Positions 8,281 through 63,188 of a stretch of 64,000 nt of DNA are shown here, piece after piece (position 1 is the stretch's first letter; each line of letters opens with the position of its first letter). The stretch is from assembly GCA_963695555.1 (NCBI GenBank), contig CAVOGR010000002.1, positions 32,001 to 96,000 on the forward strand, given 5' to 3'. This DNA comes from an uncultured Gemmatimonadales bacterium. Lineage in GTDB: Bacteria > Gemmatimonadota > Gemmatimonadetes > Gemmatimonadales > GWC2-71-9. The notes under the pieces were generated by a model, which saw nothing but the letters and a program-made list of their open reading frames with translations, made no database searches and was not told the DNA's origin. Made by a program: the position numbers and the translations under genes.

Positions 8281-8390
8281 GGGGAGTGAGGAGTAAATAG
8301 TAAGGAGTAAGGAGTAAGTAAGGAAAGCCAGAAATGACTCCCGACTCCCTACTCCCCACTCCCTACTCCCTACTCCTCACTCCTCACTCC
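8281..8390. repeat. Inverted pair of heptamer arrays (GGAGTAA...TACTCCC) between convergent genes
   Basis: Purine-rich array then pyrimidine-rich array, visible directly. Confidence 0.85.
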
Positions 8391-9176
8391 GTCGGCGCCA
8401 CCTCGTCCACATACGACCGATCCACGTAGCCCTCGGTCCGGCCATCGACGATGACGCGGTACCATCCGTCCGCCAGCGAGTCGACCAGCACCCGCTCGCC
8501 GGGGCGGAGGGTACGTACGGTAGCCGCAATACCGCTCCGTCCTTCACGCAGGTTGACCCAGGTCCTGGCATACCGTTCGAGTGGCGTGCCCGCGGGAAGT
8601 GCCGCGGCAGGTGGGGTGACCGAGGGGAGGCTGTCTCGCGCGGCAGCGGCGGGGAACGGCTCTGGCGTGGACGCGACGGCTGGTACGGCGTCACGCCGAA
8701 CCGGTGGCGGGGTTTCGGGAGTGGTGTCGATCGCTTGAACCCGGGGTTGGGTTACCGACCGCGATGGAGTGCTTGGTGCCGTATCGACCCGCCGGGCCGG
8801 CGGCGGCGCGGGCGGCTCGCGCGCGGGAGCCGTCTCGGGTGTCACAACCGCTTGCGTCTCTTGGGCCGGTGCCTGGGTCGCGCTCGCCGAATCGTCGGGG
8901 GTGGGACCGGGCTCGAGCCCCTCGCCACTGGCAGCCGCCGTTACTGGCGCAGTCGCGGCGCTCGAGCGGTCGCGACCCGGTAGGTGCAGTACGATCAGCG
9001 CGCCCACCGCAATCAGGGCGACCACGACCATCAGCACCCGCACCGGCGTGCCCAGCTCCGGGCCCGGAAATGGCCTGCCGACGAATGCCGGGCGTGAAGA
9101 TGAGCCCGCATGCAGGGCATCGGGACGCGGAGCTCTCGGCTCGCTGGCCACAGGACGGACAGTCGAGAAAGGCCAT
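8384..9176 (-). pseudogene. Zn-ribbon + TM + Pro/Ala linker + bacterial SH3 protein, one frameshift near 9060-9090 (possibly an assembly error)
   Basis: MAFLDCPSCG...CPACG is in one frame (ORF 8691-9176). TM and SH3 (YARTWVNLREG...DSLADGWYRV...GYV) are in another (8384-9151). Intact paralogue at 10140-10754. Confidence 0.8.
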
Positions 9177-9328
9177 GATGAGTCTGAATATCGATTCGCC
9201 GGTTGGCCTGGGGCAACGGGTGGGTTGCGGGAGGAGTTCAGACTACTGGTGAGGGCTATTGGCTATTGGCTGGCCCGCGCAGAGACTAATAGCGAATAGC
9301 CAATGACAAATAGCCTCTTCCCCTCCCT

Positions 9329-10018
9329 TCATGCCTTTCCCCCTCGTCCCAACCACCCTCTCACCTTGTGCTTTACCCCCTCGAACGGAATCCGATCGAT
9401 CGGGTCGGCGTCCTTCTCTTTGATCTTGATGTCGGCCACGAACGAATCGCCGTGGAACCAGATGTTGATCACCGGCGCCACGCTGCGTTTGGCTCGGCTC
9501 CGGCTGTGCTTGACCGAGCTCATCACACCATGAACTTCGTGTTCGATCTTGACGTCGAGCGGCACGGTGATCTTGATCTCGGCAATATAGGCTGAAATCT
9601 CGAGGTCCACGTCTTCAGTCAGGAATTTCGCCTCCCGGAAGTCCAGCTGCAGGCTCCCGAAGATTGCGAGGCATTTAATGGTCGGCGGAACGGTCCACGG
9701 CCCGGCCCGCTGCGCCGACCCGAACACGGCAGTGATCCGGAGCGGCTCGTCCGAGACGGCCAGGGCATCGGCCGATGTGTAGTCGGGATACGCCTCGAGT
9801 TCGTACTGCTCCCCGCGTGCCAGGACAGGCATGGGTTCGACGGGCGTGAGCCCCATCAAGTCGGCCACGATGGCCTCGATCATGGCGGCATTGGTGGCCT
9901 CTTGCACCAATCCAAACCGCGCCTCGAACGCCTCCACCGACAAGTCACCACGGGCCTGCGCCTGACACAAGAGCTCGATGGCCTGAGTGCGGGCGAGGGC
10001 GTGGGCGTTTGAGTGCAT
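9329..10018 (-). CDS. DUF1707 (SHOCT-like) + LiaF-C-like cell-envelope stress protein
   Basis: RTQAIELLCQAQARGDLSVEAFEAR (DUF1707 pattern); AVFGSAQRAGPW...AIFGSLQLDFREA...IKITVP. Confidence 0.75.
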   Translation of the reverse strand: MHSNAHALARTQAIELLCQAQARGDLSVEAFEARFGLVQEATNAAMIEAIVADLMGLTPVEPMPVLARGEQYELEAYPDYTSADALAVSDEPLRITAVFGSAQRAGPWTVPPTIKCLAIFGSLQLDFREAKFLTEDVDLEISAYIAEIKITVPLDVKIEHEVHGVMSSVKHSRSRAKRSVAPVINIWFHGDSFVADIKIKEKDADPIDRIPFEGVKHKVRGWLGRGGKA

Positions 10019-10042
10019 AGGGAATCTGGAAGTTATGAGAAG

Positions 10043-10110
10043 CTATTGGCTATTGGCTATTGGACCTGTGCAAATCGAGCTAATAGCTAATAGCTAATAG
10101 CCAATAGCAA
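10043..10110. repeat. Second heptamer family (TATTGGC / GCTAATA) as an inverted pair
   Basis: Also at 2318-2332, 9256-9315, 10836-10850 and 35212-35260. Confidence 0.85.
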
Positions 10111-10139
10111 TCAGTCCTTAGCCATCCCGCCTGGCAACC

Positions 10140-10754
10140 TCACGGCGCCCTCACCACCAGATTCGACCGGTGCGCATAGCCGACCGGTTCCCCGCCGATC
10201 GAGACGCGGTACCAGCCTTGGTCGAGCGAATCGACCAGCACGGCATCACCGGGCTCGAGCACCCGAACGGTGGGGGCGTCCCGACCGCGGTCCCGGCGCA
10301 CGTTGACCCAGGTACTGGCGTAGCGCCGCGACTGTTGGCCGGTGGGAGTGGCGGCGAGCGGCGGTAGAACCGGGGCCGGGGCCGCTACCGCCGGCGTGGT
10401 GTCGGCCACCGGACCCTGTGGCTGACTGTCTTGCCCGATCTGCCCGACGGCTGCCGTATCAGGGAGGGCGGTCTCGACCGGCTGCTGACGCTCGGTCGCA
10501 GGCGGCGGCGCGATCGCCACCCCCGACTCCACACCCGCGCTCGACGAGCCGCGCCAGCTCTGGAACGCCACCACCGCGGCGGCCAGGGCCACCAGGGCCA
10601 GGGCCACAACCAGCGCCGGCCGCACCATCCTGGCCCGGGGCGGCGGGATACTCAGCTTGAGCTGCTGCGGCGGGAACTGGTAACCGCAATGCGGGCATTG
10701 CGTCGCGATGCTCAGCATCGTCTTGCCGCATTCCGGGCAATCCATGTAGGCCAT
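10140..10754 (-). CDS. Zn-ribbon + TM + bacterial SH3 domain protein
   Basis: CPECG...CPHCG, hydrophobic helix, YASTWVNVRRD...DSLDQGWYRV...GYAH. Confidence 0.85.
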   Translation of the reverse strand: MAYMDCPECGKTMLSIATQCPHCGYQFPPQQLKLSIPPPRARMVRPALVVALALVALAAAVVAFQSWRGSSSAGVESGVAIAPPPATERQQPVETALPDTAAVGQIGQDSQPQGPVADTTPAVAAPAPVLPPLAATPTGQQSRRYASTWVNVRRDRGRDAPTVRVLEPGDAVLVDSLDQGWYRVSIGGEPVGYAHRSNLVVRAP

Positions 10755-10854
10755 GATAGGTCGGAATATCGATTCGGCGGACGGCTCGGGGCAACAGGTG
10801 AGTTGCAGGGAAGGGATCGCTGAAGGGCTGCCTGCTATTAGCTATTGGCTACTT

Positions 10855-10920
10855 GAGGGAGTAGGGAGCAGGGAGTAGGGAGTCGGATTGCTCCTCACTC
10901 CTTACTCCTTACCCCCTACT
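10855..10920. repeat. Inverted pair of heptamer arrays (GGGAGTA...TACTCCT)
   Basis: Directly visible; could fold as a long hairpin downstream of the S9 peptidase. Confidence 0.8.
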
Positions 10921-10949
10921 GCCGAACTTCCCGCCTTCCCGTCTCTTTG

Positions 10950-12995
10950 TCAGGGCACCAACCGACATCCCTCCACTTTCTCGCCCTGCGCCCCGCAGAT
11001 CACCCCGCGCAGGAAGTCGAACTGGACCTGATAGTACTCCATCAGGTTCTCGAGACCCTTGATCCCGTGGCCTTGGCCCTCAAATTCGACGTAGGTGACC
11101 GGCTTATCCAATTCCACGGCCTTGTCGTTGAATTGGCGGCTCTCGCTCACCCCCACGCGGTTGTCGTTCGAGCCGTGGGTCAGGAGGAGCGGTGCCTGAA
11201 GTAAGTCGACGTGGGCGAGTGGCGAGCGATCGAGCAGTTTGTCACGCTCAGTCTTGGGGTCGCCCGCCTCGAGGATAATCCAGTCGGGAATATTGGTGGC
11301 GTCGTAGAACGTCACGATGCTCGAGAATCCGGCGTGACTCAGGCCAAAACCGAATGGGTACGACTCGCCCCGACCGTTGGTTTCCGGCGGGAAGGTGAGT
11401 GCCCGCATAGTGGCGTAGCCGCCGTGCGACCCGCCGGCGACCCCGATCTGATTCGGCGCTAGGCCCAACTTCCGCTCCAGAAACCGTGCGCCATAGAAGA
11501 GATCGATGATCTCGTCGCCGCCCAGGTCGCGGTCGTTGAGCGCCATGAACTCCTTGCCGAACCCCGAGTTGCCGCGCACCGCAGGCGACAGCCAGCTGAT
11601 CCCCGCCTCGCAGTAAATGTTCTGGCGGGTCGAGTAACTATTCCCTCCCCCGTAGAACGATGTGATCACCGCCAGACGCTCGGCTGGATTGGAGCGCGGT
11701 TGCTTCGGTGTCATGAGGTAGGAGTGCAGCTGGCGCGGGGCCCCGGTCTTGGGATCGATATCGAACGTGGGATACTCGATCCGCTCGACGTTGCACTGCT
11801 CGATCGCACGGGCGATGGGCTCCGGGAGCCGAATCTTGGGCTCGAGAGTCCAGACGGGTTTGCCCTTCTCGATCGCGATCCACATCTCCTCGGCGCGAAA
11901 CGGTGATGCCGCCGAGGCCAGCGAGATGATGAAGTGGTTCTTGTCATCGAAGCCGATGACGCCGATGTTGGCGTTGAACGTCTTCTGGCCCAGGACCTTG
12001 CCCGTCTCCGGATCGATCACCTGCATCACATTCTCGTGTGGCCGGTCGAGCGTCTGCAGGATGAGTTTCCGTCCATCGATGTCCAACAGCGTATGCCAGG
12101 CCTGTTCCTCGACCGTTGAGACCTGCCGTGACGATTGTTGGGCGAGATCATAGACATAGAGATTGGCGTAACCGGTTTCATCGGACACGTAGTAGAACCG
12201 GTCATTGTCGAGCCACCCCTTCTCGTAGGAACCCAGCGCATAGCGCTCGATTCCGTCAGGCAGCAGCATCTCGAGCTTGGGTTCCGAGGCCGTGAGGTCC
12301 AGATAGGCCAGGTTGCCCTGCTTTCGGTGGCCATTCCGGTTGAGCTTGAGGACCACGCCGCTTCCGTCAGGCCGGAAGTTGACACTGGTCCACACCATGC
12401 GGTACTCGGCGCCTTCTTCGCACAGTACCTCGCGATTGAGACCGCTGGCAGGATCGAGCAGGGTCAGGCAATTGCGATATGGCTCGGTCGTGCCGTAGCG
12501 CGCGATGTAACCGATGGTCTTCTTGCCCTTCGAGAAGCCCCAGCCGTAGATGTAGGGCACCCAGGTCAGCCGCTCGAGCGATCCGTCCGCGAGCGACATC
12601 CGGTAGAGGTTGATCACCTCGTCGTTCTTCTCGTCGCCCAGCAGGATCATGTTGCCGCGAAGTGAGTCGTAGCGGGTGCCCCAGAAATTCCGGGTGGACC
12701 AATCGATGTCGTGAAGCCGCCGACCCGCCTCCGGATTCACTTGGCCCGACCCGCGCCCCACCGTGAGCGGCTGGACCATGAGGAAGTTGCCCTCGGGGGT
12801 GGTGTGGAAGTAGAACAGCCGGCCGGCCTCGAAATCCGCGTCCCAGCCACTGTAAGGAAAACCTTGGAAATACGGCTCGAGGTTGATGGTCCGGCCCAAA
12901 AGACTCACAGTGTACTTGGCCGCGTCCTGGGCCGGGAGTTGCGTGGGCGAGAGAATCCAGCCGACGAAGGCAATGAGGATCAGTCGTTTCAACAT
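10950..12995 (-). CDS. Secreted S9 (prolyl oligopeptidase/acylaminoacyl peptidase) family serine peptidase
   Basis: Signal peptide MLKRLILIAFVG..., beta-propeller-like N-part, GGSHGG nucleophile, HGSNDNRV Asp, EGQGHG His. Confidence 0.9.
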   Translation of the reverse strand: MLKRLILIAFVGWILSPTQLPAQDAAKYTVSLLGRTINLEPYFQGFPYSGWDADFEAGRLFYFHTTPEGNFLMVQPLTVGRGSGQVNPEAGRRLHDIDWSTRNFWGTRYDSLRGNMILLGDEKNDEVINLYRMSLADGSLERLTWVPYIYGWGFSKGKKTIGYIARYGTTEPYRNCLTLLDPASGLNREVLCEEGAEYRMVWTSVNFRPDGSGVVLKLNRNGHRKQGNLAYLDLTASEPKLEMLLPDGIERYALGSYEKGWLDNDRFYYVSDETGYANLYVYDLAQQSSRQVSTVEEQAWHTLLDIDGRKLILQTLDRPHENVMQVIDPETGKVLGQKTFNANIGVIGFDDKNHFIISLASAASPFRAEEMWIAIEKGKPVWTLEPKIRLPEPIARAIEQCNVERIEYPTFDIDPKTGAPRQLHSYLMTPKQPRSNPAERLAVITSFYGGGNSYSTRQNIYCEAGISWLSPAVRGNSGFGKEFMALNDRDLGGDEIIDLFYGARFLERKLGLAPNQIGVAGGSHGGYATMRALTFPPETNGRGESYPFGFGLSHAGFSSIVTFYDATNIPDWIILEAGDPKTERDKLLDRSPLAHVDLLQAPLLLTHGSNDNRVGVSESRQFNDKAVELDKPVTYVEFEGQGHGIKGLENLMEYYQVQFDFLRGVICGAQGEKVEGCRLVP

Positions 12996-13211
12996 GGCGA
13001 GCACCTGGTTTTGGTGGCCCAAGACAGCGAGTATGGGAAACGCGAGCTCGACATCGAGCGCCGAGTCGACCTATTGTCTCCCATCGAGCATGAGAGTGTG
13101 ATGAAGGATCTCTGAAGCCTTATCTTGCCCCCCGCGCCCACAGAGTCTATCGATTAGGTGCGTCGGTGGAGGACAAGTACCAATGGAGACCCGAGGCATG
13201 CTGAGGCGTTC

Positions 13212-14486
13212 ATGACCCAATCCTCGACATCGGTGGCGATTGTGGGTGGCGGGCTGGCGGGGCTCTGTGCCGCACGCCGGCTCACGGACATGGGGGTGAC
13301 GTGCTCCATCATCGAGGCGAGCGACAGGGTTGGAGGCAGGGTGGCCACCGATACAGTCGACGGATTCCTGCTCGACCGGGGCTTCCAGGTGTTCCTGACC
13401 TCCTATCCAGAGGCCCGCCAGGTCCTGGATTACGAAGGACTCGAGCTGCACGAATTTCTCTCCGGCAGCCTGGTCCGTTGGAGCAGCCGGATGTACCCCG
13501 TGGCCGATCCCTGGCGGCAGCCGCTCGAAGGGATGAAATCGCTGTTCACACCCGTCATGCGGCTCGGCGACGCGACGAAGCTCGCCCGGCTTCGCCAGGA
13601 CGCGCTCGAGCGGAGCCGGGCAGGCGCCGCGGCCGAGCCGGACGAATCGACGCTGCGCTACCTCAGGCGCCTTGGCCTCTCGACGGAAGTGATCGAACGG
13701 TTCTTCCGGCCCTTCTTTAGCGGGGTATTCCTCGATCCGGAACTGGCGACATCGCGGTCGCTGTTCGACTTCGTGTTTGCCATGTTTGCGACCGGCCACG
13801 CGACGCTCCCCGCGGCTGGAATGGGTGCTATCCCAGAGCAACTTCATGCCGGCCTCCCGCCCGACACGGTTCGCACCGGCTCGCGGGTGCGCAGTGTGCG
13901 CCCGGGCATCGTGGAGTTGGCGTCGGGCGAGGAGATCCGAGCTGCGTCGATCATCCTCGCGACCGATGCCGCGCAGGCGGCGGCGCTCTCGCCCATTCGC
14001 CCGAGGGTGGCCTGGCACGGGTGTACCACGAGCTACTTTGCTGCCGACAAGGCCCCGCTCACCGACCCGATCTTAGTGCTGAACGGCGACGGCCCCGCGA
14101 GCGGGCCAGTAAACCATCTCGCCGTGCCGAGCAACGTCGCCGCGTCTTATGCACCGGCGGGAGCCGCGTTGATCTCGGCGACCATTCTGGGTGTGCCGGC
14201 TGCAGAGGACTTGAGTCTCGAAGAACAGGTGCGGCAGCAGCTGACCGGATGGTTCGGGCCTGCGGTCCGTTCCTGGCGGCATCTTCGAACCGACCGGATT
14301 GCACATGCGCTTCCCACGTACAGTCTGAGCCGGGCGCCCAACAATGGCGCCGCCGAACGGCTGGATGAGACCGTGTTTGCCTGCGGCGACTATCTAGAGA
14401 ATCCCTCGATCAACGGCGCCATGCTCTCAGGCCGCCGCGCCGCCGACCGGGTGCTCGCGACGCTCGGCGTGGCAGTCACGGATTAG
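13212..14486 (+). CDS. FAD-dependent oxidoreductase (flavin amine oxidase/HemY-like)
   Basis: VAIVGGGLAGL...EASDRVGGRV...DRGFQV; C-terminal ACGDY...SINGAMLSGRRAA. Confidence 0.88.
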   Translation: MTQSSTSVAIVGGGLAGLCAARRLTDMGVTCSIIEASDRVGGRVATDTVDGFLLDRGFQVFLTSYPEARQVLDYEGLELHEFLSGSLVRWSSRMYPVADPWRQPLEGMKSLFTPVMRLGDATKLARLRQDALERSRAGAAAEPDESTLRYLRRLGLSTEVIERFFRPFFSGVFLDPELATSRSLFDFVFAMFATGHATLPAAGMGAIPEQLHAGLPPDTVRTGSRVRSVRPGIVELASGEEIRAASIILATDAAQAAALSPIRPRVAWHGCTTSYFAADKAPLTDPILVLNGDGPASGPVNHLAVPSNVAASYAPAGAALISATILGVPAAEDLSLEEQVRQQLTGWFGPAVRSWRHLRTDRIAHALPTYSLSRAPNNGAAERLDETVFACGDYLENPSINGAMLSGRRAADRVLATLGVAVTD

Positions 14487-51749: not shown

Positions 51750-53672
51750 CTACGGTGTCCGGCCGCGTCTCAACCGCTCGATCATGAGTTCGTGCGCGAC
51801 GCCGACAAAACTCTGTTCGCTCACCAACCCGACGAGCTTCCCGTGGGAGACGACCGGGAGGGCGGAGACTCGCTTGGCGCTCATGAGCTCGATGGCCTCG
51901 ATCGTCGGCATGTCCGGTGGAACAGTAATGGGATCTGCGTACATGATCTCCCGCACCGCCATGGTGCCTTCGTTGGGAATGCCGCCCTCGGCCAAGAGCC
52001 GAATCAGGAGCCGGTACGAGACGATCCCAACCAACTGATGGTCATGGTCTTCCACCAGCACATGTCGGAGTTGCTTCCGATCCATGACGAAGGCGACCCG
52101 ATCAACCAGTTCGTCTTCGCTGACGGTGAAGAGATCGGTGTCCATGAACTGCTCGATGCGGGCGTAGGCCTCTTCCCAGCCGGCCGACTCATCCAGGCGG
52201 GCCAACGGCCATTCGTGGACCGGCGCCCGCGTCTCCTGACGGGCCACGGTTGCGGCCGTAAGCGCCGCGAGGTGCTCGGCCGTGTTGCCCTTTCCGCTCA
52301 TCGCGGCCAGCGACTCCAACAGCCAGCTGGCACCGACCCGCCGGCTTGCGACCCGCGCGTCGATGACGCCGAGGTAGCGGTCGATGTCCGACGAGTCGAC
52401 CGCAACCGACTCGAGGCCCGCACGCGCCAGCGGCAAGAGCTGGGAGAGGATCAACTCGGGCGCGGTCACCATCTGCCCATCGATCCAATTGAAACCGGCC
52501 TTGAGTCCCAACCGACCGGCCGCCACGAAATTCGCTTTGGCATCCGAGAAATCCAGCCGGTGGGAAATGTCCCCGAGTTCTTCAGTGGCGCCCAGCATGA
52601 GCCCGGCCCAAAAGGCGGCGTTGGCCACTTCATCGAGCACCGAGGGACCTGCGGGCAGCAGTCGGCACTCGATCCTCAGGTGGGCATGGCCGTTTCCGAT
52701 GCCGTAACAGGCGCGGTTCCAGGTGTAGACCGTGCTATTGTGGAGACGCAGTGCCTGGAGCTCGGGCGCTCGCCCCGCGTCGATCTCGCGCATGGAGTCT
52801 TGGGTGACCGGCGTGGCCATGAGAACCGGGAATCGGGCGACGTCCTCCTGGAACACCTCGAGCACGCTCTCCTTGACCCATCGCTCCCCGAAGCGCACCC
52901 GTGGGCTGAGTTCGCGGGCGTGTACGCTCGCTCGCCGGGTATCGATGGACTGCCGGAAGAGGGCGATCCGCGTCTCCATCCAGAGCCGCCGCCCGAAGAG
53001 CAGCGGCGAATTCACCGCCGCGGCCAACACCGGCGCCGCAATCGCCTGGGCCATGTTGTAGAACCGGGCGAATTCCTCGGCGCTGACCTGGAGGTGGATC
53101 TGGAAGCTGGTATTGCAGGCTTCGAGCATGACGTTGTCGTGCTCGACGTGTAATTCGTCGGCGCCCTCGACATGGAGATGGAGCGGTCCGCCGCGGAGTC
53201 GGCACGTGGCGTCATTGAGCGCTTGGTACCGGGGCCGCGGGCTCATGTTGTCCAGTCGCAGATCGGACTTGGACAGGGTCGGCAGAATGCCGGTCAGGAC
53301 GACCTTGGCATGAGCCTCGTGGGCGGCAGCGCCAAGCATGGCGAGCAGCGAATCGAGCTCATGTTCCATCGCCCCGAAACACCCGCCCGCGAGGGGGGAG
53401 GGGCTGAGATTCGTCTCCAGATTGAACCGCGCCAGCTCGGTCGTGAAGCGCGGGTCATTCAGGGTCTCCAGTATCTCCAAAGCGACCGGCGCGGGCTTCC
53501 AGGCACGGTCGACCAGAAAGACTTCCTGCTCCGCCCCGATCCGACGTTGTCCCGATTCGATCATGCCAAGCGACAGCAAGCGTTCGAGCGCGTTGAGGTC
53601 GCTCAGGAGATGCCGCGTGAATTTCCGGATAGCCTCGGGGGAAAGATCCGGCTGAACGTCCTGCTGGCCCAC
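51750..53672 (-). CDS. Glutamate-cysteine ligase (GCS2) family protein with C-terminal CBS pair
   Basis: RIGAEQE, ELARFNLE, EACNTSFQIHLQV, NSPLLFG, HLRIECR; CBS tandem at the C-terminus. Confidence 0.88.
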   Translation of the reverse strand: MGQQDVQPDLSPEAIRKFTRHLLSDLNALERLLSLGMIESGQRRIGAEQEVFLVDRAWKPAPVALEILETLNDPRFTTELARFNLETNLSPSPLAGGCFGAMEHELDSLLAMLGAAAHEAHAKVVLTGILPTLSKSDLRLDNMSPRPRYQALNDATCRLRGGPLHLHVEGADELHVEHDNVMLEACNTSFQIHLQVSAEEFARFYNMAQAIAAPVLAAAVNSPLLFGRRLWMETRIALFRQSIDTRRASVHARELSPRVRFGERWVKESVLEVFQEDVARFPVLMATPVTQDSMREIDAGRAPELQALRLHNSTVYTWNRACYGIGNGHAHLRIECRLLPAGPSVLDEVANAAFWAGLMLGATEELGDISHRLDFSDAKANFVAAGRLGLKAGFNWIDGQMVTAPELILSQLLPLARAGLESVAVDSSDIDRYLGVIDARVASRRVGASWLLESLAAMSGKGNTAEHLAALTAATVARQETRAPVHEWPLARLDESAGWEEAYARIEQFMDTDLFTVSEDELVDRVAFVMDRKQLRHVLVEDHDHQLVGIVSYRLLIRLLAEGGIPNEGTMAVREIMYADPITVPPDMPTIEAIELMSAKRVSALPVVSHGKLVGLVSEQSFVGVAHELMIERLRRGRTP

Positions 53673-55769: not shown

Positions 55770-56654
55770 TCAAAGCTGCCGCGCCAGTGCGACCAGGTCG
55801 GCGGTCGTGCCCGAAGTGACGAAGGCGATCGTCCCGTTTCGGTCGATCAGGTAGACCATCCGGGTGTGCACCACGTCTCCCGTGGTCTCGTCCCTGGCCC
55901 GGGTCACGTTCCAGTGATCGAGCACTCCTTCGACTTGGTCGATGGTCCCGCTCAGCACGTGACCGCGGGCTCCGAGCTCCCACTGCTCGGCCAGCGCGGG
56001 CAGGCGGGTCGGCACGTCGCGCCACGGATCGAGTGTCACGACAAGAGCCACCGGATCGAGGTCCAATACCTCGTCGCACGCCCGAAGCACGTCGCGCACC
56101 ACGACCGGGCACACCGTTTCACAATGGCCGAACGCAAAGGTCACGAAGACCGGCCGGCCACGAAAAAGCTCGAGCGAGACGTCGTGACCGTACTGATCCA
56201 CCAGGCGTAGGCTCGGTGCGGCCCGATCGAGTCGGGGCGGAAGCGACGCAACAGCCTCGGACGCGACAGGAGGGTCGTCGAATGCGCCCTCTGCGGCCGA
56301 GGCATTCAGCACCCGTAGCGTGGCAGCGGTGAATCCGGCACCGAGCAAGAGCCCGAGCGCCCCCAACGCGATCCGCCCACCGAGCCACCCGCTCAGGCTC
56401 CTCACTCCGCCCTCCAGCGCCTCGCCCCAGAGGGCGAACAACACGCCGAACATGATGGTGGGTTGAAGTACGAGCGCGACCCACCCGGCGGCGTCGGGTA
56501 GGCCACCGGGGGCCGCTCCGAAGCAGACTTCCCGCGTGCGGGCGAGCCAGGTGGCGCTTGCCGTCGCGGGCCAAAGGGCCAGGGCCCACCAGACCACGGT
56601 GATGCCGATGAGGCAGGTGGCCGCCGCAAGCGCGGCGGCCTCACGCGACCGCAT
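55770..56654 (-). CDS. SCO1/SenC copper chaperone with extended N-terminal membrane domain
   Basis: FGHCETVCP (CxxxC), VVHTRMVYLID; three N-terminal hydrophobic segments. Confidence 0.9.
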   Translation of the reverse strand: MRSREAAALAAATCLIGITVVWWALALWPATASATWLARTREVCFGAAPGGLPDAAGWVALVLQPTIMFGVLFALWGEALEGGVRSLSGWLGGRIALGALGLLLGAGFTAATLRVLNASAAEGAFDDPPVASEAVASLPPRLDRAAPSLRLVDQYGHDVSLELFRGRPVFVTFAFGHCETVCPVVVRDVLRACDEVLDLDPVALVVTLDPWRDVPTRLPALAEQWELGARGHVLSGTIDQVEGVLDHWNVTRARDETTGDVVHTRMVYLIDRNGTIAFVTSGTTADLVALARQL

Positions 56655-56660
56655 GTACCC

Positions 56661-58355
56661 TCATCCGATCTTCCACAGGAAGGACAGGAGCTTCCAATTC
56701 ACGAAGTAGTACACCACGAACGCCGCGAGGAACACGAAGACCAGCACCATCGTCCCGCGTGAGGCGAGCAATGCGCCGCCGGCCGCGTCGCCTGCCGGCA
56801 GGGCACTCGGCGGATTCAGGATACCCGGCGGAAGCCCCCGGGTGGAACCTGCTTCCAGCTTCTTGCCGAAGAACACCGACCACACGGTCACCAGGATGAA
56901 GATCCCGCCACCTAGCGCGGCTAGGAGGCCGCCGATGGCCATGATGCCGATCAGGAGGTCGACCGCCGGAGAGAATTGGATGTCGAACGGCGCCTGGGCG
57001 AAGCTGATGTCCCAGTGCCGCCGCGGCACGCCGAAGGTGCCCGCGAAGGTCATGCAGATCGAAAAGATGAACATGCCGATGGCGAAGAGATACGGCTGGA
57101 TCTTGGCCAACGGCCAAAACGCGACCTCTTTTCGGAACACCAACGGAATCACGTAGTACGTCAGCCCCATGAAGGCGAGGGCCGTCCCGCTCACCACCGT
57201 GGCGTGGAAGTGGCCCGGAATGCGGAGGGTGTTGTGGGCGATGATGTTGATTTGCTCCGTGCCGAACGTGACGCCGGTGATGCCGCCGACAAATCCGAAC
57301 ACCACGACGGAGAACACCAAGGCACTGAACCCCGGATCGCCCCAGGGTGCTTTCCGGAGCCACTCGAATAAACCTTTGGTGAGCCCGCGCACCCGTTGCC
57401 CCAGTTCGATTCCTGCGGGGACGGTAAAGCCGTGGATCATGCTGGCGAGCACGGCCAGGTACATGGCATAGCTCGTGTTCCACACCTTCCAGGCTGGGCC
57501 CATGCCGGGATCGACCAGGAGGTGGTGCGCCGACGCCATGGAAATGAAGAGCACGTAGAGCACGAAGGCCGTGCGGCTGATCTTCTCGTTGATGACGACC
57601 GAGCCCACCGTCAACGCGCCCAGGAGGTACCACACCGACACCATGGCCGCCATGTTGATCTGCTGCGACGAGTGGCCCAGGCCCCACCAGACCAGCCGGT
57701 AGATCTGGGGATCCATATCCATCCAACCCATCGACCAGAAGAAGGTCGGGATGTAAGCCGCGGCCCCGTGCCCCAACGTGATGACCGCAATGATGGCCGC
57801 GGTCGTGGCACCGAAGGTGATGAGCGGCATCGAACCCTCGTAGGTCTTTTCCCGCTTCGCTACCACCAGCGTGCCGAAGAAGATGCCCACAACCAGCAAG
57901 GCACCGACCGCGAAGAGAATGACACCCAGGTAGAACAGCGGATCGGCCCGGAGCGGCACGTACGAGGTGAACAGGACGTCCGCCTTCCCCGCAATCATCA
58001 TCCACTCTACCATGACGGTTCCCAGCACCATGAGGCCGAAGGAAAACCATGCCAGCCGTGGAGCTGGGACGCGGCTGTTCAGAAGTACCGCGCTCGCGAA
58101 GTAGAGGATGGCCATCTCGAAGAACAGGATGAAGAAGATCAACATGTTCATCCCGTGAATGGTCAGCACGCGGTAGAACCACGTGGCGTCCAGTAGATGG
58201 ACCGCCTGCCACCGCGTCAGGAGGACGAGAATGGCCGCAATGCCACCGATCAGGAGCGTGACGGTGCCGGCGACCGCGTTGGCCTTGATGAGCGCGTCCG
58301 CCTGTGCGTGCACCTTGAGTCCCGTCGTGGGACAGACTCGGAAGTTCGAGTTCAT
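56661..58355 (-). CDS. Heme-copper oxidoreductase subunit I, B-family-derived, probable eNOR-type nitric oxide reductase
   Basis: All six His present (IHG, GH, AHH, HFH), but helix VI reads WWGLGHSSQQIN instead of GHPxVY. Confidence 0.85.
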   Translation of the reverse strand: MNSNFRVCPTTGLKVHAQADALIKANAVAGTVTLLIGGIAAILVLLTRWQAVHLLDATWFYRVLTIHGMNMLIFFILFFEMAILYFASAVLLNSRVPAPRLAWFSFGLMVLGTVMVEWMMIAGKADVLFTSYVPLRADPLFYLGVILFAVGALLVVGIFFGTLVVAKREKTYEGSMPLITFGATTAAIIAVITLGHGAAAYIPTFFWSMGWMDMDPQIYRLVWWGLGHSSQQINMAAMVSVWYLLGALTVGSVVINEKISRTAFVLYVLFISMASAHHLLVDPGMGPAWKVWNTSYAMYLAVLASMIHGFTVPAGIELGQRVRGLTKGLFEWLRKAPWGDPGFSALVFSVVVFGFVGGITGVTFGTEQINIIAHNTLRIPGHFHATVVSGTALAFMGLTYYVIPLVFRKEVAFWPLAKIQPYLFAIGMFIFSICMTFAGTFGVPRRHWDISFAQAPFDIQFSPAVDLLIGIMAIGGLLAALGGGIFILVTVWSVFFGKKLEAGSTRGLPPGILNPPSALPAGDAAGGALLASRGTMVLVFVFLAAFVVYYFVNWKLLSFLWKIG

Positions 58356-58936
58356 TGGACGCCCTCCTCAGCGACAGCCTCGGTGTTCAGCGCCGTGGTT
58401 GGCCCGTCGACCACCACGACCTTGCCGAGCATCAGGTGGTGGCCGATGCCGCAGAACTCGTTGCAGATGATGCGGAAATCGCCGGCCTCGGTCGGGGTGA
58501 CGCGCAGGCCGTAGTCGTAGCCGGGAACGATCTGGAAATTGATGTTCAACGGATAGAGACTGAACCCGTGATTCACGTCGAGCGACGAGATGTGCAGGGT
58601 GTATTGCACGTCCTTCTGGAGACGCAAGACCGGACGCCAGCTATACATCGACGCCGAGAGATAGATGTCGCTCCCAGGGGGAGGTTCGACGACCGGAATG
58701 CCTTGCTCGGTCCCGACCTGATACGTGCGGATGAACTCTTCCGTGCGGGCGCGGAACGCCTCCGGCTCCACCCGGCTCCGGATGCCGGACGGATTCTGTC
58801 CGCCGCGAACGTGCCACAGGGGCATCATGGCGAACAGCACCATGCACCAGACGAAAGCCACGATTACCCAAAGGCGCTCGGTCTTGTGCGCGGGCTTCCA
58901 CCAGATCCCCTTGGGGGATTGGACGCCTGTATTCAT
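58352..58936 (-). CDS. CuA-containing subunit II
   Basis: DVNHGF...CNEFCGIGHHLM CuA motif, one N-terminal TM; ATGA overlap with subunit I. Confidence 0.93.
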   Translation of the reverse strand: MNTGVQSPKGIWWKPAHKTERLWVIVAFVWCMVLFAMMPLWHVRGGQNPSGIRSRVEPEAFRARTEEFIRTYQVGTEQGIPVVEPPPGSDIYLSASMYSWRPVLRLQKDVQYTLHISSLDVNHGFSLYPLNINFQIVPGYDYGLRVTPTEAGDFRIICNEFCGIGHHLMLGKVVVVDGPTTALNTEAVAEEGVQ

Positions 58937-58952
58937 CGGTGTGCTCCGCCGC

Positions 58953-59126
58953 TCAGGGGAGGGTGGCCTTCGGGAGGGATGCGATCTCCCACAGGCCCCA
59001 CAGGGTGTAGAACAGGAGCATGACGACGATTCCGGCTACTAAGAGCAGGAACGGGTTGTCGTACAGCCGCTGGCCCAACGGAACTTCGGTCCCCGCGTCC
59101 GTCGTCCTTTCGTGATCATCCGCCAT
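58953..59126 (-). CDS. 57-aa single-TM protein, probable small accessory subunit (not in the ORF track)
   Basis: AGGAGG SD; MADDHERTTDAGTEVPLGQRLYDNPFLLLVAGIVVMLLFYTLWGLWEIASLPKATLP*. Confidence 0.8.
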   Translation of the reverse strand: MADDHERTTDAGTEVPLGQRLYDNPFLLLVAGIVVMLLFYTLWGLWEIASLPKATLP

Positions 59127-59138
59127 CGTGCGCCTCCT

Positions 59139-59564
59139 CTAGGGTGTCCGGCCAGCCACACGAACTGGCTGCCCAACCACTTCGGCCACCGTGGTGTCTC
59201 GTACGAACCGGGCGACCTCCTCGCCCAACCGGCTCCAGCGCGAATGCACCGCGCAGGCCCGTTCATCCGAACATTCCGCCCGTCCCAACAGGCAGCGCCG
59301 GCGGGCGTCGACCGACTCGAATACCGAGACCACGTCCAGCAACGAGACTTCCTCGGCGGGCCGGCTGAGCTCGAAACCGCCGTGCTTTCCGCGGGATGAC
59401 TTGACCACACCGGCCCGAGCCATCGCGTGCATGATTTTCGACAGGTAGTTGGCGGGCACACCGATGGCCCCGGCAATCTCGGCGACCGGCTCGGGGCCGC
59501 TGCCCCAGCGCTTCGCCAAGTGGAACACCGCGCTGAGGGCGTATTCCGAGGTTCCAGAAAACAT
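59139..59564 (-). CDS. Rrf2-family transcriptional regulator with three Cys (Fe-S type)
   Basis: SEYALSAVFHLA, YLSKIM..L/M..G.V.S.RG..GGFEL, CLLGRAECSDERACAVH. Confidence 0.92.
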   Translation of the reverse strand: MFSGTSEYALSAVFHLAKRWGSGPEPVAEIAGAIGVPANYLSKIMHAMARAGVVKSSRGKHGGFELSRPAEEVSLLDVVSVFESVDARRRCLLGRAECSDERACAVHSRWSRLGEEVARFVRDTTVAEVVGQPVRVAGRTP

Positions 59565-59599
59565 CGTGGCGGGCTTCCCCCTGGACTTGGGCTTCTGGC

Positions 59600-59657
59600 T
59601 AATTACGATATTGACATGAGACAAGCATATTATGCATCCCGCGCGGGGTGAGTGCAA
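59600..59657 (-). promoter_or_regulatory. Promoter of the rrf2-oxidase operon with overlapping imperfect palindrome
   Basis: TTGCAC-N17-CATAAT; GATGCATAATATGCTTG dyad over the -10. Confidence 0.55.
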
Positions 59658-59702
59658 GATTGACCGCCTCGCCCAACCCCCGAACCCCTCGGCAGGAGGC
59701 CC

Positions 59703-61277
59703 ATGAGATCCTGGGGTAAGCGGCTCGAAGGGGCGGCATTTCGGGTCCTGTCCCGGGCCGACGCCTTCATGAACCGGCTCTACACCTGGCGCTTCAATCC
59801 GCTCTATCACAGCGGGGCGCTGGTGGTGGTGCTGTTCATCGCGGTGACTGTGACCGGGATCTATCTGCTTTTTTTCTATCGGGTTAGCGCGCCATACCAG
59901 TCGATTGCCAGGCTCCAGGACCAGGTCTGGTTGGGACGCTGGATTCGTTCGTTCCACCGCTATGCCTCCGACGCGGCGGTGGTTGCGGCCTTGGTTCACG
60001 CCTTCCGGGTATTCGCCCAAGGTCGCAGCTGGGGGCCCCGCACCCTGGCCTGGGTCAGTGGGGTGGCCCTGCTCTCCGTTACCCTGATCTGCGGCTGGAC
60101 CGGCTACGTCATGGTTTGGGACGAACAGGGCCTGGTCCTGGCCCGGGAGGGCGCCCGGTTCCTCGATGCCCTCCCCTTGTTCTCGGAGCCCATCAGCCGG
60201 GCATTCGTGGGCGACCGGCTGATCCCGAACGCGTTCTTCTTTCTGAATCTCTTCCTGCACGTCGCACTTCCGATCGGGATCGGCGTCGTGCTGTGGCTCC
60301 ACGTCTCGCGCGTGGCCAGAGCCGCGCTCCTGCCACCGCGCGCCCTGAGCTGGGCGGTCCTGGGCCTGCTGCTCGGACTCTCGGTCCTCTGGCCCGCCGC
60401 CCTCGGACCGGCGGCCGACTTGTTTCGATTGCCGCAACGAGCGCCGTTCGATCTGTTCTACTCAGGCTGGCTCCCGCTCACCAGGAATCTGTCGGCCGGT
60501 CTGGTCTGGCTCGTGGGTGGCACACTCGCCGCGATCTTCGTGGCCACCCCATGGTGGATCGGCGGCCGCAGCCGACGCGTCGAGTCGATGCAGCCCTCCT
60601 TCGTGGTCCAGCGGCTCTGCGATGCCTGCCGAACGTGCTATCTGGATTGCCCCTACGAAGCGATCGACATGGTGGCGCGTACTGACGGGCGCCCCGGTCT
60701 CGTCGCCCGCGTCGATCCGGCGCTCTGCGTCAGCTGCGGTATTTGCGCCGGGTCGTGCGCCCCGATGGGGGTCGGGCCCCCAAAGCGAACGGGCCGATAC
60801 CAGGTCGCCGCCGTCGAGCAGTTCATCGCCGACCACACGCTCGGCTCGGACGACGTCGTGATCATTGGCTGTTCCTTCGGCGCCGGGAACGTCACTCGAG
60901 GGACAACGTTCGACGGTGCATGTATCTTTCCGGTCGACTGCGCCGGGAGCATGCATACCTCGGTGGTGGAGTACCTGGTGCGGTCAGGCGTGGGTGGGGT
61001 GTTGATCGTATCTTGCCCCCCACGCGATTGCTGGCATCGCGAAGGCCCCAAGTGGCTGGAACAGCGGCTCTATCACGGTAGAGAGGCCGAGCTCAAGGAG
61101 CGGGTCGACCGGCGGCGCATCAGGCTGGCGCACGCCGGGCTCGCGGAACCATACCTCGTTCGGCAGGTGTTGGCTGAGTTCCGCCGTGAGCTGGCCGCGC
61201 TCGAAGTGGCCAGCGCGGAAGAGGATATCGCGCTGAGTATCGAGTGCGCGGCACCGGTAGAAGAGGTCGAGTCGTGA
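59703..61277 (+). CDS. Fusion: cytochrome b/b6-like + 2x[4Fe-4S] ferredoxin + MvhD/FlpD-like [2Fe-2S] domain
   Basis: RSFHRYASD..LVHAFRVF, WTGYVMVWD, FLHV..WLHV (4 heme His); CDACRTCYLDCP and CVSCGICAGSC; GC...VDCAG...GVLIVSCPPRDCWH. Confidence 0.88.
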   Translation: MRSWGKRLEGAAFRVLSRADAFMNRLYTWRFNPLYHSGALVVVLFIAVTVTGIYLLFFYRVSAPYQSIARLQDQVWLGRWIRSFHRYASDAAVVAALVHAFRVFAQGRSWGPRTLAWVSGVALLSVTLICGWTGYVMVWDEQGLVLAREGARFLDALPLFSEPISRAFVGDRLIPNAFFFLNLFLHVALPIGIGVVLWLHVSRVARAALLPPRALSWAVLGLLLGLSVLWPAALGPAADLFRLPQRAPFDLFYSGWLPLTRNLSAGLVWLVGGTLAAIFVATPWWIGGRSRRVESMQPSFVVQRLCDACRTCYLDCPYEAIDMVARTDGRPGLVARVDPALCVSCGICAGSCAPMGVGPPKRTGRYQVAAVEQFIADHTLGSDDVVIIGCSFGAGNVTRGTTFDGACIFPVDCAGSMHTSVVEYLVRSGVGGVLIVSCPPRDCWHREGPKWLEQRLYHGREAELKERVDRRRIRLAHAGLAEPYLVRQVLAEFRRELAALEVASAEEDIALSIECAAPVEEVES

Positions 61278-61822
61278 TGGGACGCCCCGTGGTAATGGCG
61301 CTTGGAGCCGTCCTCGCGGTGGGCGGTATGATGGCACTGGGTGCGTTGTCCCAGATTCCGTACCAACCCGAGGAGGCGACGCACGCCGTGATTCGGCTCG
61401 CCTGGCGGGCCCGGGGCGTCGCGGTCAAGGAGTGCCGCACGATGACGCCGGAAGAGCTCGAGAAGGTGGCCGTTCATATGCGGCGGACCGAAGTGTGCGA
61501 AGGGCGGACCCTGCCCTATCAGCTCCGCGCGGTAGTTGACGGCGATGTCCGGGTCGATGAAGCCGTCGAGGCAGGCGGCGCCCGTGGCGACCGGCCGCTC
61601 TTCGTGCTCCACGATCTTCCGGTGGCCCCAGGCTCGCACCAAGTGGAGGTCTCATTTACTCGCGAGAGAGCGCCCGCAGAGGCTACGGACAGTACGGAGG
61701 TCACCCCGGCCAGACTGGAACTCGACCGATCGATCGAGGTGGTATCGGGGCAGGTCGTGCTCGTGACCTACGACCCGGATACCAAAACCATGATCGTTCA
61801 GGACGCGCCCGCGACTCGTTGA
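61277..61822 (+). CDS. Membrane-anchored hypothetical protein coupled to the cytochrome b fusion
   Basis: TGATG overlap; N-terminal hydrophobic helix; KECR..PEELEKVAVHMRRTEVCEG. Confidence 0.8.
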   Translation: MGRPVVMALGAVLAVGGMMALGALSQIPYQPEEATHAVIRLAWRARGVAVKECRTMTPEELEKVAVHMRRTEVCEGRTLPYQLRAVVDGDVRVDEAVEAGGARGDRPLFVLHDLPVAPGSHQVEVSFTRERAPAEATDSTEVTPARLELDRSIEVVSGQVVLVTYDPDTKTMIVQDAPATR

Positions 61823-61865
61823 TTGCTGGCGTGCCCCCGACAGGCAAATCCCTTGGAGGCAGCAC

Positions 61866-63188
61866 ATGCCGCTACGCGTGATCATCCTCGGCGCAGCAGG
61901 CCGGGACTTCCATAACTTCAACGTCCATTTTCGAGACAATCCTGCCTACGACGTGGTTGCCTTCACTGCCACCCAGATTCCCAACATCAGCGGGCGCCGC
62001 TACCCACCCGAACTCGCGGGAGACCAATATCCCAAGGGCATACCGATCGAGCCCGAGGACGACCTCGAGAGCCTGATCCGAAGCCGCGATGTCAACGTGG
62101 TGGTCTTCGCCTACAGCGATGTGTCCCATGACTACGTGATGCACTTGGGCTCCCGGGCCCTGGCGGCCGGCGCCGACTACCTCCTGCTCGGACCCAAGCA
62201 CACCATGCTGAGTTCGCGGGTTCCGGTGGTGGCCATTTGCGCGGCGCGCACGGGATCGGGCAAGAGCCAAACCAGCCGCTATGTGGCAGCCATCTTGAGC
62301 GGCTGGGGGAAACGGGTCGTGGTGATTCGTCATCCGATGCCGTACGGAGACTTGGTCAAACAGGCGGTCCAGCGCTTCGCGAACTACGACGATCTCGAGC
62401 AACACGATGTAACCATCGAAGAACGCGAGGAATACGAGCCGCACATCGCGGCGGGCCGGGTGGTCTACGCCGGTGTCGATTACCAGAAGATCCTGGAACA
62501 GGCCGAACGGGAAGCCGACGTCATCATCTGGGACGGCGGCAACAACGACCTGCCGTTCTACCGACCGACCTTCCATATCGTCGTCGTCGATCCGCACCGC
62601 CCAGGCCACTCGGCCGAGTACCATCCCGGCGAGACCAACGTTCGGATGGCCGACTGCATCATCATCAACAAGATGGACACCGCGGCCCCGGAGCAGGTGC
62701 AGGCCGTGCGAGAGACCGTCACCAATCTCAATGCCCGGGCCACGATCGTCGAGGCCGACAGCCCCATTACCGTGGAGGGCGCCGAACAGATCCGGGGCAA
62801 GAGGGTCTTGGTGGTCGAAGACGGCCCGACCCTCACCCACGGCGGCATGGCATTCGGCGCGGGATGGGTGGCGGCCAAACAGCATGGCGCAGCCGCGGTC
62901 ATCGACCCCAGGCCCTATGCCGTGGGCTCGATTGCCCGGACCTTCGAGGCCTATCCCACCACCGGCGCGGTCCTTCCGGCCATGGGCTATGGCGACCAGC
63001 AGACCGAGGAATTGGAGCAGACCATCAATGACTCCCCAGCCGACCTCGTGATCATCGGCACCCCGATCGACCTGCGGCGCATCGTGAACATCACGAAGCC
63101 ATCGGTCCGGGTGCGCTACGAACTCGCCGAGCGGGGGGAACCCAAGCTCGAGGGATATCTGCGCGAAGCAATTAACCGTAAGTCGTAA
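61866..63188 (+). CDS. COG2403 P-loop NTPase (annotated cyclic 2,3-diphosphoglycerate synthetase-like; arginine synthetase ArcE homologue)
   Basis: GAAGRDFHNFN, VAFTATQIP, RTGSGKS, RHPMPYG, TIEEREEYEPH, WDGGNND, EDGPTLTHG, PAMGY. Confidence 0.85.
   Translation: MPLRVIILGAAGRDFHNFNVHFRDNPAYDVVAFTATQIPNISGRRYPPELAGDQYPKGIPIEPEDDLESLIRSRDVNVVVFAYSDVSHDYVMHLGSRALAAGADYLLLGPKHTMLSSRVPVVAICAARTGSGKSQTSRYVAAILSGWGKRVVVIRHPMPYGDLVKQAVQRFANYDDLEQHDVTIEEREEYEPHIAAGRVVYAGVDYQKILEQAEREADVIIWDGGNNDLPFYRPTFHIVVVDPHRPGHSAEYHPGETNVRMADCIIINKMDTAAPEQVQAVRETVTNLNARATIVEADSPITVEGAEQIRGKRVLVVEDGPTLTHGGMAFGAGWVAAKQHGAAAVIDPRPYAVGSIARTFEAYPTTGAVLPAMGYGDQQTEELEQTINDSPADLVIIGTPIDLRRIVNITKPSVRVRYELAERGEPKLEGYLREAINRKS

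Follow-up and report, generated by a model that had tools for sequence, protein, structure and literature searches.

We analysed a stretch of 64,000 nucleotides (hereafter the window) from the genome of an uncultured Gemmatimonadales bacterium, the last 12 kb of which, according to the listing of open reading frames, contains two divergent transcription units (table 1). The reverse-strand unit is an operon encoding an Rrf2-family regulator, the two subunits of a nitric oxide (NO) reductase of the eNOR type and a SCO1/SenC copper chaperone. The forward-strand unit encodes a fusion protein, which joins a cytochrome b to iron–sulfur (Fe–S) and MvhD-like domains, and a small membrane-anchored partner. 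An earlier note on this DNA had singled out the fusion and its partner as a candidate undescribed electron-supply module for the NO reductase. The analysis reported here indicates that the two proteins probably serve the neighbouring eNOR.

Architecture of the fusion protein, its partner and the divergent locus

Three segments of the 524-residue fusion protein are recognised by Pfam above the respective cut-offs: Cytochrome_B (PF00033) at residues 32–202 (1e-15; 58.5 bits for a cut-off of 27.2), the 4Fe-4S dicluster domain Fer4_7 at residues 306–352, and FlpD (PF02662) at residues 407–500 (6.4e-11; 42.8 bits for a cut-off of 22.3). NCBIfam gave sub-threshold matches only (ExtP, cytochrome b6, SoxC, and the C-terminus of HdrA2). 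Two alignments covering four phyla (Gemmatimonadota, Bacteroidota, Chloroflexi, and Proteobacteria), one with 14 and one with 43 homologues, served to assess conservation, as did a wider set of 150 family representatives of 50%-identity clusters. The four histidines of the predicted bis-histidine haem sites (H85, H99, H186, and H200), which sit on helices B and D, and the eight cysteines of the two ferredoxin motifs are invariant in both alignments and kept in 148–150 of the 150 representatives. The MvhD-like cysteines C390, C413, C438, and C443, which we take to be the ligands of a [2Fe-2S] cluster, are also invariant in both alignments and occur in 143, 146, 145, and 124 representatives, respectively. 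The composition read in the earlier note, a single polypeptide with a four-histidine cytochrome b, two [4Fe-4S] motifs and an MvhD/FlpD-like cysteine pattern, is thus borne out by both the domain matches and the conservation of the ligands.

The family profile matches cytochrome b6 in the PDB at 3.5e-32, and the profile of residues 205–296 (sub-alignment A4) matches subunit IV of the b6f complex at 9.5e-6. In the latter match, the family motif xD(W/L)(F/Y), FDLF in the window protein, aligns with the PEWY motif of subunit IV, with D250 placed on its catalytic glutamate. This aspartate is kept in 144 of the 150 representatives, among which the commonest motifs are of the xDWF form (IDWF 11, LDWF 9, and VDWF 6); a form beginning with proline is absent from the 25 commonest. 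The P-side residues W139 and D140 are conserved as well. An AlphaFold2 model of the fusion (predicted local distance difference test [pLDDT] 86.7; predicted template modelling score [pTM] 0.86) was compared with known structures by Foldseek, and its membrane part superposes on the whole cytochrome b of the bc1 complex over 285–320 columns. Helices G/H were not found in the fusion (no match to PF00032). We conclude that the membrane part is a cytochrome b6 extended by helices E–F of subunit IV, a Qo-like loop included, which makes six transmembrane (TM) helices. The conserved Qo aspartate, together with W139 and D140, argues at the sequence level for a working quinol site that faces the periplasm. 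Beyond the membrane part, the ferredoxin-like domain matches the C-terminal ferredoxin domain of HdrA in the PDB, and the MvhD-like domain (sub-alignment A7) matches the solved MvhD 9sw2_D at 1.1e-15, its four cysteines aligning with cysteines of solved MvhD chains. On the basis of cytochrome b topology and hydropathy, both domains would lie on the cytoplasmic side.

The stop codon of the fusion gene (61275–61277) overlaps the start codon of the partner gene (61277–61279) as TGATG and the partner has one predicted TM helix, in agreement with the coupling to a membrane-anchored protein that had been described. The partner (181 amino acids from the ATG at 61277) matches no Pfam or NCBIfam model. 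Its AlphaFold2 model (pLDDT 91.8) comprises the TM helix and a 10-strand beta sandwich, for which Foldseek returned no PDB match at E≤1e-3. With VIA-align wide, the top match was the lumenal sandwich of HGSNAT (Z 7.5) and generic sandwiches came next, none of them an informative relative; neither search lists a cupredoxin, Rieske, or cytochrome fold. In Bacteroidota (649 amino acids) and Chloroflexi (732 and 735 amino acids), the fusion protein itself is extended at its C-terminus by one more TM helix and a domain that can be aligned with the partner. A hidden Markov model (HMM) of 16 stand-alone Gemmatimonadota partners matches the C-terminus of 106 of the 111 family representatives of at least 600 amino acids (median E 6e-23) and none of the 39 shorter ones. 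Since most family members have it fused to the cytochrome b protein, the partner is a genuine subunit; judging from these alignments, it is an integral domain of the family that was split off as a separate gene in the lineage of the window.

The partner also contains a cysteine/HM motif, which the earlier note had given as C-x12-HM-x5-C and which actually reads C-x13-HM-x5-C. Its candidacy as a metal site was rejected: only Gly101 is invariant across 21 partner sequences (alignment A3), the motif cysteines are absent from the Chloroflexi, Bacteroidota, and Zetaproteobacteria forms, and cysteines and histidine are unconserved outside Gemmatimonadota and one alphaproteobacterium. The two cysteines stand on neighbouring strands in the model and probably form a disulfide. 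A structure prediction of fusion residues 1–295 with the partner, two haems and eNOR subunit II as the scored chain gave a score of 0.01, which is neutral on binding.

Subunit I of the neighbouring operon carries the motif GHSSQQ, with a glutamine four residues after the histidine, at the place of the cross-link tyrosine. The CuA ligands of subunit II (H123, C158, E160, C162, H166, and M169) are invariant in 17 sequences. Subunit I is 84% identical to the haem-copper subunit of HRbin33 (locus L022), a genome listed with ENOR=1 as its only NO reductase (NOR total 1) in Dataset S8 of Murali et al. (2024). By sequence, the neighbouring haem-copper enzyme is therefore an eNOR, having no cross-link tyrosine, a CuA subunit II and a relative classed as eNOR by those authors; the equation of GHSSQQ with eNOR is a label from the earlier note. 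The source genome also has a match to a cd1-type nitrite reductase (1.6e-109) and a CtaA away from the locus.

Between the start codons of the Rrf2 and fusion genes lies a gap of 135 bp, so that the divergent control region previously noted is present, although slightly shorter than the 138 bp given for it. An AT-rich, palindrome-like motif at about 59600–59640 recurs at orthologous loci; on visual inspection, most of 12 intergenic regions from such loci contain motifs resembling ATCATGAT(A/G)(T/A)TATCATGA. The AT-rich motif may be the Rrf2 operator, and the fusion and eNOR are probably co-regulated from the shared divergent promoter, with the Rrf2 protein as the putative regulator. A scan of 58900–62000 for sigma-70 promoters returned no site, and the two terminator-like sites found there equal the chance expectation. 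As stated earlier for this locus, no Rieske protein, cytochrome c, hydrogenase, or HdrA was seen among the open reading frames of 51.7–64 kb or their Pfam matches.

Table 1. Position, strand and supporting evidence of the features discussed
Feature	Position in window	Strand	Evidence
SCO1/SenC copper chaperone, last gene of eNOR operon	55770..56654	-	Pfam SCO1-SenC 4.4e-22
eNOR-type haem-copper subunit I	56661..58355	-	Pfam COX1 3.7e-62
eNOR CuA subunit II	58352..58936	-	Pfam COX2; CuA motif complete
Rrf2-family regulator (NsrR/IscR-like)	59139..59567	-	Pfam Rrf2 1.5e-29; TIGR00738 above cut-off
Divergent control region, 135 bp	59568..59702	.	Sequence
Fusion protein, 524 amino acids: cytochrome b, 2x[4Fe-4S] and MvhD-like domain	59703..61277	+	Open reading frame, Pfam, NCBIfam, AlphaFold2 model
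Cytochrome b6-like four-helix, two-haem core, residues 32-212 (His 85, 99, 186, 200)	59796..60338	+	Pfam PF00033; PDB profile match
Subunit-IV-like helices E and F, Qo-type ef-loop motif F249-D250-L251-F252 at the place of PEWY	60339..60572	+	PDB profile, Foldseek
Ferredoxin-like domain, two CxxCxxCxxxCP motifs (predicted 2x[4Fe-4S]), predicted cytoplasmic	60600..60770	+	Pfam Fer4_7; eight invariant Cys
MvhD/FlpD-like domain, four conserved Cys (predicted [2Fe-2S])	60840..61202	+	Pfam FlpD; MvhD PDB match
Partner subunit: N-terminal TM helix and predicted periplasmic beta sandwich, no conserved cofactor ligands	61277..61822	+	TGATG overlap, AlphaFold2, HMM, alignment

Directly downstream of the partner (61866–63188, forward strand) lies the gene for a 440-residue protein with a weak CobW/HypB/UreG P-loop match (1.6e-5) and no NCBIfam name. 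It was rejected as a part of the module: of the Gemmatimonadota loci, only the three closest (L006–L008) have it behind the module. Locus L006, titled a Gemmatimonadales metagenome-assembled genome (MAG), is 99% identical to the window. On the other side, a 640-residue protein (51750–53672, reverse strand) with a glutamate-cysteine-ligase family 2 domain and two C-terminal CBS domains is conserved in the closest relatives (L006 and L008), where it too lies upstream of the eNOR locus. The stretch 55770–63188 is matched at 95–99% identity by contigs of four estuary metatranscriptome libraries, one run covering it entirely, and a close relative of the source organism is therefore present in those samples. 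The contigs that match the eNOR genes and the fusion, at an identity of at least 95%, come from four runs of four studies; contigs of run X1 cover all 30 bins and include one of 2,235 nucleotides over 59272–61506. Because contigs as such do not demonstrate transcription, DNA carry-over is possible and the 2,235-nucleotide contig crosses the divergent promoter, we do not take them as evidence of expression.

Co-occurrence and synteny with eNOR

The earlier note had named in advance the co-occurrence and synteny of this architecture with GHSSQQ-type subunit I as a check, and the association proved close in each of four independent samples. Among the 73 genome loci with a tblastn match to the fusion (L006–L078), 62 also hold an eNOR-like subunit I or II; they come from Gemmatimonadota, Bacteroidota, one alphaproteobacterium, and one zetaproteobacterium. 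The other 11 comprise eight short or end-cut contigs and the loci L065, whose genome has eNOR subunit I on another contig, L069, a contig of 4.3 kb, and L075, which is considered below. In 301 Gemmatimonadota genomes, with a threshold of E≤1e-80 for eNOR-like subunit I, the fusion was found in 67, subunit I in 69, and both in 65, and in 64 of these 65 genomes the two genes lie on one contig, about 2.4–3.3 kb apart. Only four of 201 Chitinophagaceae genomes have the fusion, and the same four have eNOR subunit I. A converse sample, centred on eNOR, was drawn from metagenomes: 80 loci with a subunit I 53–83% identical to that of the window, a set biased towards relatives of the query. The fusion lies 0.3–2.1 kb from the pair of genes for subunits II and I (NorII-NorI) in 53 of these 80, that is in 53 of the 55 that can be judged, the other 25 having a flank of less than 4 kb on one side.

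Two Gemmatimonadota genomes have the fusion without subunit I. One (G295) is a very fragmented assembly and the other (G127) harbours a decayed locus (L083, G127:C1 about 9360–11470), in which only residues 342–524 of the fusion (the C-terminal 183) are left, SCO is broken into three frame-shifted pieces, Rrf2 is present as fragments and the partner looks intact (39% identical); NorI and NorII are missing from it. The fusion locus thus decays where eNOR is gone, which amounts to co-loss.

Gene order varies among lineages. In Gemmatimonadota the fusion gene is divergent from the eNOR operon, and in Bacteroidota a single operon runs NorII-NorI-SCO-fusion. In Proteobacteria the fusion gene is within the eNOR operon (in the alphaproteobacterium, and in two tandem copies in the zetaproteobacterium) together with CtaB, CtaA, and a COX1-like protein, and in Chloroflexi it accompanies CtaB, CtaA/DsbD_2, and a P-type Cu-ATPase. 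Taken together, these comparisons of gene content and order argue strongly for a functional tie of the fusion to eNOR.

Some of these loci have features of their own. At the zetaproteobacterial locus (L025, a MAG; 8321–13519), the two fusion paralogues (510 and 534 amino acids) are followed by a 167-residue partner-like protein, next by a 460-residue multi-helix protein with a weak COX1 match (5e-13) and then CtaA (see also L163, 2431–3717). The COX1-like protein recurs beside several proteobacterial-type eNOR loci, and it may be the "eNOR scaffold protein" named in the accessible text of a preprint on Ferrigenium straubiae (bioRxiv 10.64898/2026.01.22.701106). In a Terrimonas MAG (L029, 6521–7438), eNOR subunit II bears a C-terminal class I cytochrome c domain (Pfam Cytochrom_C 1.3e-9); with such a domain on the Bacteroidota subunit II, the electron entry point therefore differs among lineages that share the same fusion. 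Finally, a subclade of eNOR-like subunits with the motif GHGTQQ is represented by the loci L081 (G270:C1; 9432–12442) and L082 (G191:C3; 9743–12001), where subunit I is 44–46% identical to that of the window by tblastn. It keeps the CuA ligands, and in L081 an Rrf2 gene lies downstream; SCO is absent from the neighbourhood, and no cytochrome b fusion was found anywhere in these two genomes.

Possible roles of the module

The reading that we prefer, and to which we give an even chance, is that the fusion and its partner form a Rieske-less, bc-type, quinol-oxidising electron module dedicated to the neighbouring eNOR. The membrane part would hold two b haems and a periplasm-facing, Qo-like pocket with the invariant aspartate at the PEWY position; on the cytoplasmic side, two [4Fe-4S] clusters and one MvhD-type [2Fe-2S] cluster would follow haem bH in a chain, and a seventh helix, encoded here by a separate gene, would place the cofactor-less beta sandwich in the periplasm. 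Quinol would be oxidised at the Qo-like site and electrons passed to the CuA subunit of eNOR (in Bacteroidota to its fused cytochrome c domain), the beta sandwich serving as a docking piece in place of a Rieske head, while the b haems and the Fe–S chain would provide a second branch from the Qo-like site to a cytoplasmic redox partner. Of the electron module for the NO reductase put forward earlier, the functional tie to eNOR and the standing of the partner as a subunit are thus retained. Helices E–F with their PEWY-like Qo motif had been overlooked, and it is this motif that points to quinol rather than only to a cytoplasmic donor.

Several observations weigh against this proposal. The position of the PEWY tryptophan is a leucine in the window protein and a tryptophan in only 64 of the 150 representatives, which may mean a changed pocket. 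Between the Qo site and CuA, no periplasmic redox cofactor is apparent: the locus lacks a Rieske protein and a cytochrome c, and the partner lacks conserved ligands. Since a Rieske gene with adjoining cytochrome b pieces exists separately in the genome, the need for a private route to eNOR is not obvious. The association with eNOR has exceptions on both sides: in genome G305 (locus L075) the fusion and partner lie among unrelated genes and no eNOR subunit I was found at E≤1e-30; four of the 69 Gemmatimonadota genomes with subunit I have it without the fusion, their subunits, which are 46–48% identical to that of the window, belonging to the GHGTQQ subclade with no fusion or SCO nearby; and at the metagenome loci L142 and L143 eNOR stands without the fusion amid histidine and glutamine synthesis genes. 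Moreover, the fusion often lies amid assembly genes (SCO, CtaB, CtaA, and Cu-ATPase), a setting that fits a role in maturation equally well.

The four Rieske matches obtained in a search of the source genome all lie on contig C1, and one adjoins other cytochrome b pieces. At G000:C1:569155-570107, the Rieske gene is followed by cytochrome b-like pieces, one with an in-frame TGA and the next in another frame; a split cytochrome b, a frameshift and an assembly error are all conceivable. We also considered the fusion as a substitute for a missing bc complex but rejected this, given the Rieske and cytochrome b genes present in the genome; the module thus comes on top of a bc complex and does not replace it.

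A bolder form of the proposal, which we find quite improbable, makes the module a Rieske-less, Q-cycle-type bifurcating device, in which the strongly exergonic reduction of NO drives the electrogenic, uphill making of low-potential reductant. The CuA of eNOR (or the fused cytochrome c), held by the beta sandwich, would then be the high-potential acceptor at the Qo-like site, and the second, low-potential electron would travel through bL, bH, and the three Fe–S clusters to a cytoplasmic acceptor, for example ferredoxin or NAD(P)+.

The module may instead be a wire from cytoplasm to periplasm, the main idea of the earlier note, in which reduced ferredoxin, or NAD(P)H by way of a flavoprotein docked on the MvhD-like domain, would feed the Fe–S clusters, then bH and bL, and finally CuA, so that NO removal would be independent of the quinol pool and the cytochrome c chain and the Qo-like pocket would be vestigial or regulatory. 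The place of the Fe–S and MvhD domains, after six TM helices, on the cytoplasmic side and next to haem bH, would suit such a wire, as would co-regulation with an Rrf2/NsrR-like regulator if the purpose were detoxification. The flavin modules of NOX/FRE-type haem-flavin reductases and of flavohaemoglobin, which oxidise NAD(P)H, offer an analogy. A flavin oxidoreductase or FAD/NADH module is described on the same scaffold in Alicycliphilus (PMC4122944) and Ferrigenium (10.64898/2026.01.22.701106), as far as the available text of these sources goes. On the other hand, flavin and NAD(P)H domains are absent from the fusion and its conserved neighbours, and the nearby genes include none for an HdrA-like or hydrogenase partner. 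A search over 918–2620 amino acids returned no fused form longer than 917, and thus none of the flavin-bearing variants in the literature, which is weak evidence. The near-universal Qo-motif aspartate (144 of 150) is also hard to explain for an idle pocket, and we regard the wire as unlikely. A fusion that links the quinol pool to a cytoplasmic acceptor as a separate NO-stress function, co-regulated with eNOR and without physical or electron link to it, seems very improbable to us. Qmo- and DsrMK-type cytochrome b/Fe–S proteins do make such a link, the cofactor chain of the fusion ends in the cytoplasm, and G305 would be a case in point; yet the presence and loss of the fusion are tied almost perfectly to eNOR across phyla, the two share an operon in Bacteroidota and Proteobacteria, the locus is decayed in G127, where eNOR is gone, and no conserved cytoplasmic reductase gene travels with the fusion.

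It is also possible, but again unlikely in our judgement, that the module supplies reducing power for building eNOR and not for its turnover, either by reducing periplasmic Fe(III)/Cu(II) for the insertion of FeB and CuA or by feeding the O2-dependent haem A(s) synthase. The company of SCO, CtaB, CtaA, and Cu-ATPase in Bacteroidota, Proteobacteria, and Chloroflexi speaks for this, as does the lack of a nearby SCO at the eNOR-like operons without fusion (L081, L082, and L142). However, the systems known to mature CuA, haem a and FeB rely on thiol-disulfide proteins, chaperones or AAA+ proteins, not on bc-type cytochromes, and the fusion is not known from other haem-a oxidase operons with CtaA and SCO. 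A seven-helix, five-cofactor protein with a conserved Qo-type site would be an expensive assembly aid, and the tandem paralogues at L025 resemble a dimeric respiratory subunit. That eNOR carries the unusual haem As and that many eNOR operons hold CtaA, as stated in the accessible parts of Murali et al., remain points in favour of maturation.

eNOR, only recently recognised, is a widespread source of N2O and possibly conserves energy. A cytochrome b protein with five cofactors that accompanies this enzyme in at least four phyla, and disappears with it, is the obvious candidate for the link from the quinone pool or the cytoplasm to the enzyme. Were it to work as a Qo-type module without a Rieske protein, quinol oxidation would have a third solution in addition to bc1/b6f and alternative complex III, and this would bear on the energy yield from NO reduction in the aerobic or microoxic denitrifiers of soil, estuaries, and wastewater. 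Should the bifurcating form hold, it would represent a new mode of energy conservation in denitrification and extend to many phyla the idea of the Ferrigenium preprint (see below). Since its publication in 2014 the architecture has had no function assigned to it, and the comparative evidence makes this loose end directly testable.

Comparison with known systems

The module is not undescribed, as had been supposed. The architecture of cytochrome b, 4Fe-4S, and MvhD was named the "PDWF-FeS" clade by Kao and Hunte (2014; Genome Biol Evol, PMC4122944), with Magnetospirillum magneticum, Turneriella parva, and Alicycliphilus denitrificans as hosts, the 4Fe-4S and MvhD domains being described for the cytochromes b of M. 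magneticum and T. parva; in the accessible text of that article, the gene cluster is said to contain no Rieske protein, and no function, eNOR link, or partner domain is given. The fusion of the window has the same three parts and likewise no Rieske gene in its cluster. It differs in its motif, FDLF rather than PDWF, and in having the periplasmic domain as a separate gene, the likeness being one of domain architecture. Two of the three PDWF-FeS hosts, T. parva and A. denitrificans, are listed with ENOR=1 in Dataset S6 of Murali et al. (2024).

The second published relative is the eNOR operon of F. straubiae, which, according to the text available from the preprint (10.64898/2026.01.22.701106), holds two cytochrome b-[Fe-S] genes, SCO, and haem o synthase. 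Both cytochrome b-FeS proteins and eNOR were detected there in the denitrifying proteome, and a supercomplex with eNOR that couples NO reduction to NAD+ reduction was proposed. These genes share with the window the pairing of cytochrome b and Fe–S domains at eNOR and, by way of the similar zetaproteobacterial locus L025, are presumably homologous to the fusion; unlike it, one has FAD and NADH domains, and the preprint terms them "rather unusual" and possible Ferrigenium markers. A full-text literature search found no other paper on a general link between eNOR and cytochrome b-FeS proteins, and the accessible portion of a Gallionellaceae pangenome paper has nothing on it. The available text of Murali et al. 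does not mention the cytochrome b in question, nor do its text-readable supplements contain "operon," "cytochrome b," or "ferredoxin"; the eNOR assays quoted there used artificial donors, and the electron source in the cell is not stated in that text. The window protein is hence a new member, in split form, of a family that the literature has already named and whose tie to eNOR has barely been published.

With PetB and PetD of b6f and the cytochrome b of bc1, the fusion shares the four histidine ligands, the WD at the end of helix C, helices E–F with a loop that aligns with PEWY, and the fold. It differs from them in having no Rieske protein, cytochrome c1/f, or helices G/H, in carrying an Fe–S chain at the cytoplasm-facing Qi side and in being tied to an NO reductase. 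The resemblance to MvhD of Mvh-Hdr lies in the FlpD domain and the alignment of its four cysteines with solved chains, and residues 299–502 align with the ferredoxin-MvhD C-terminus of HdrA2 (NF040770, 1.5e-15, far below the cut-off). Unlike in these proteins, the domain is attached to a membrane cytochrome b, and the host is not a methanogen; genes for hydrogenase, formate dehydrogenase, or HdrA are absent both from the final 12 kb of the window and from the neighbourhood conserved among its relatives. QmoC, DsrMK, and HdrED-type modules also combine a membrane cytochrome b with cytoplasmic Fe–S clusters, but in Qmo, Dsr, and Hdr the cytochromes are of the NarI/HdrE type instead of the bc type, and the enzymes that they serve are those of sulfur or heterodisulfide metabolism. 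In the Sulfolobus SoxABCD quinol oxidase, SoxC, a cytochrome b homologue without a Rieske partner, acts directly with a haem-copper oxidase and has no Fe–S domains; its NCBIfam model matches fusion residues 31–211 at 3.9e-19, far short of the cut-off.

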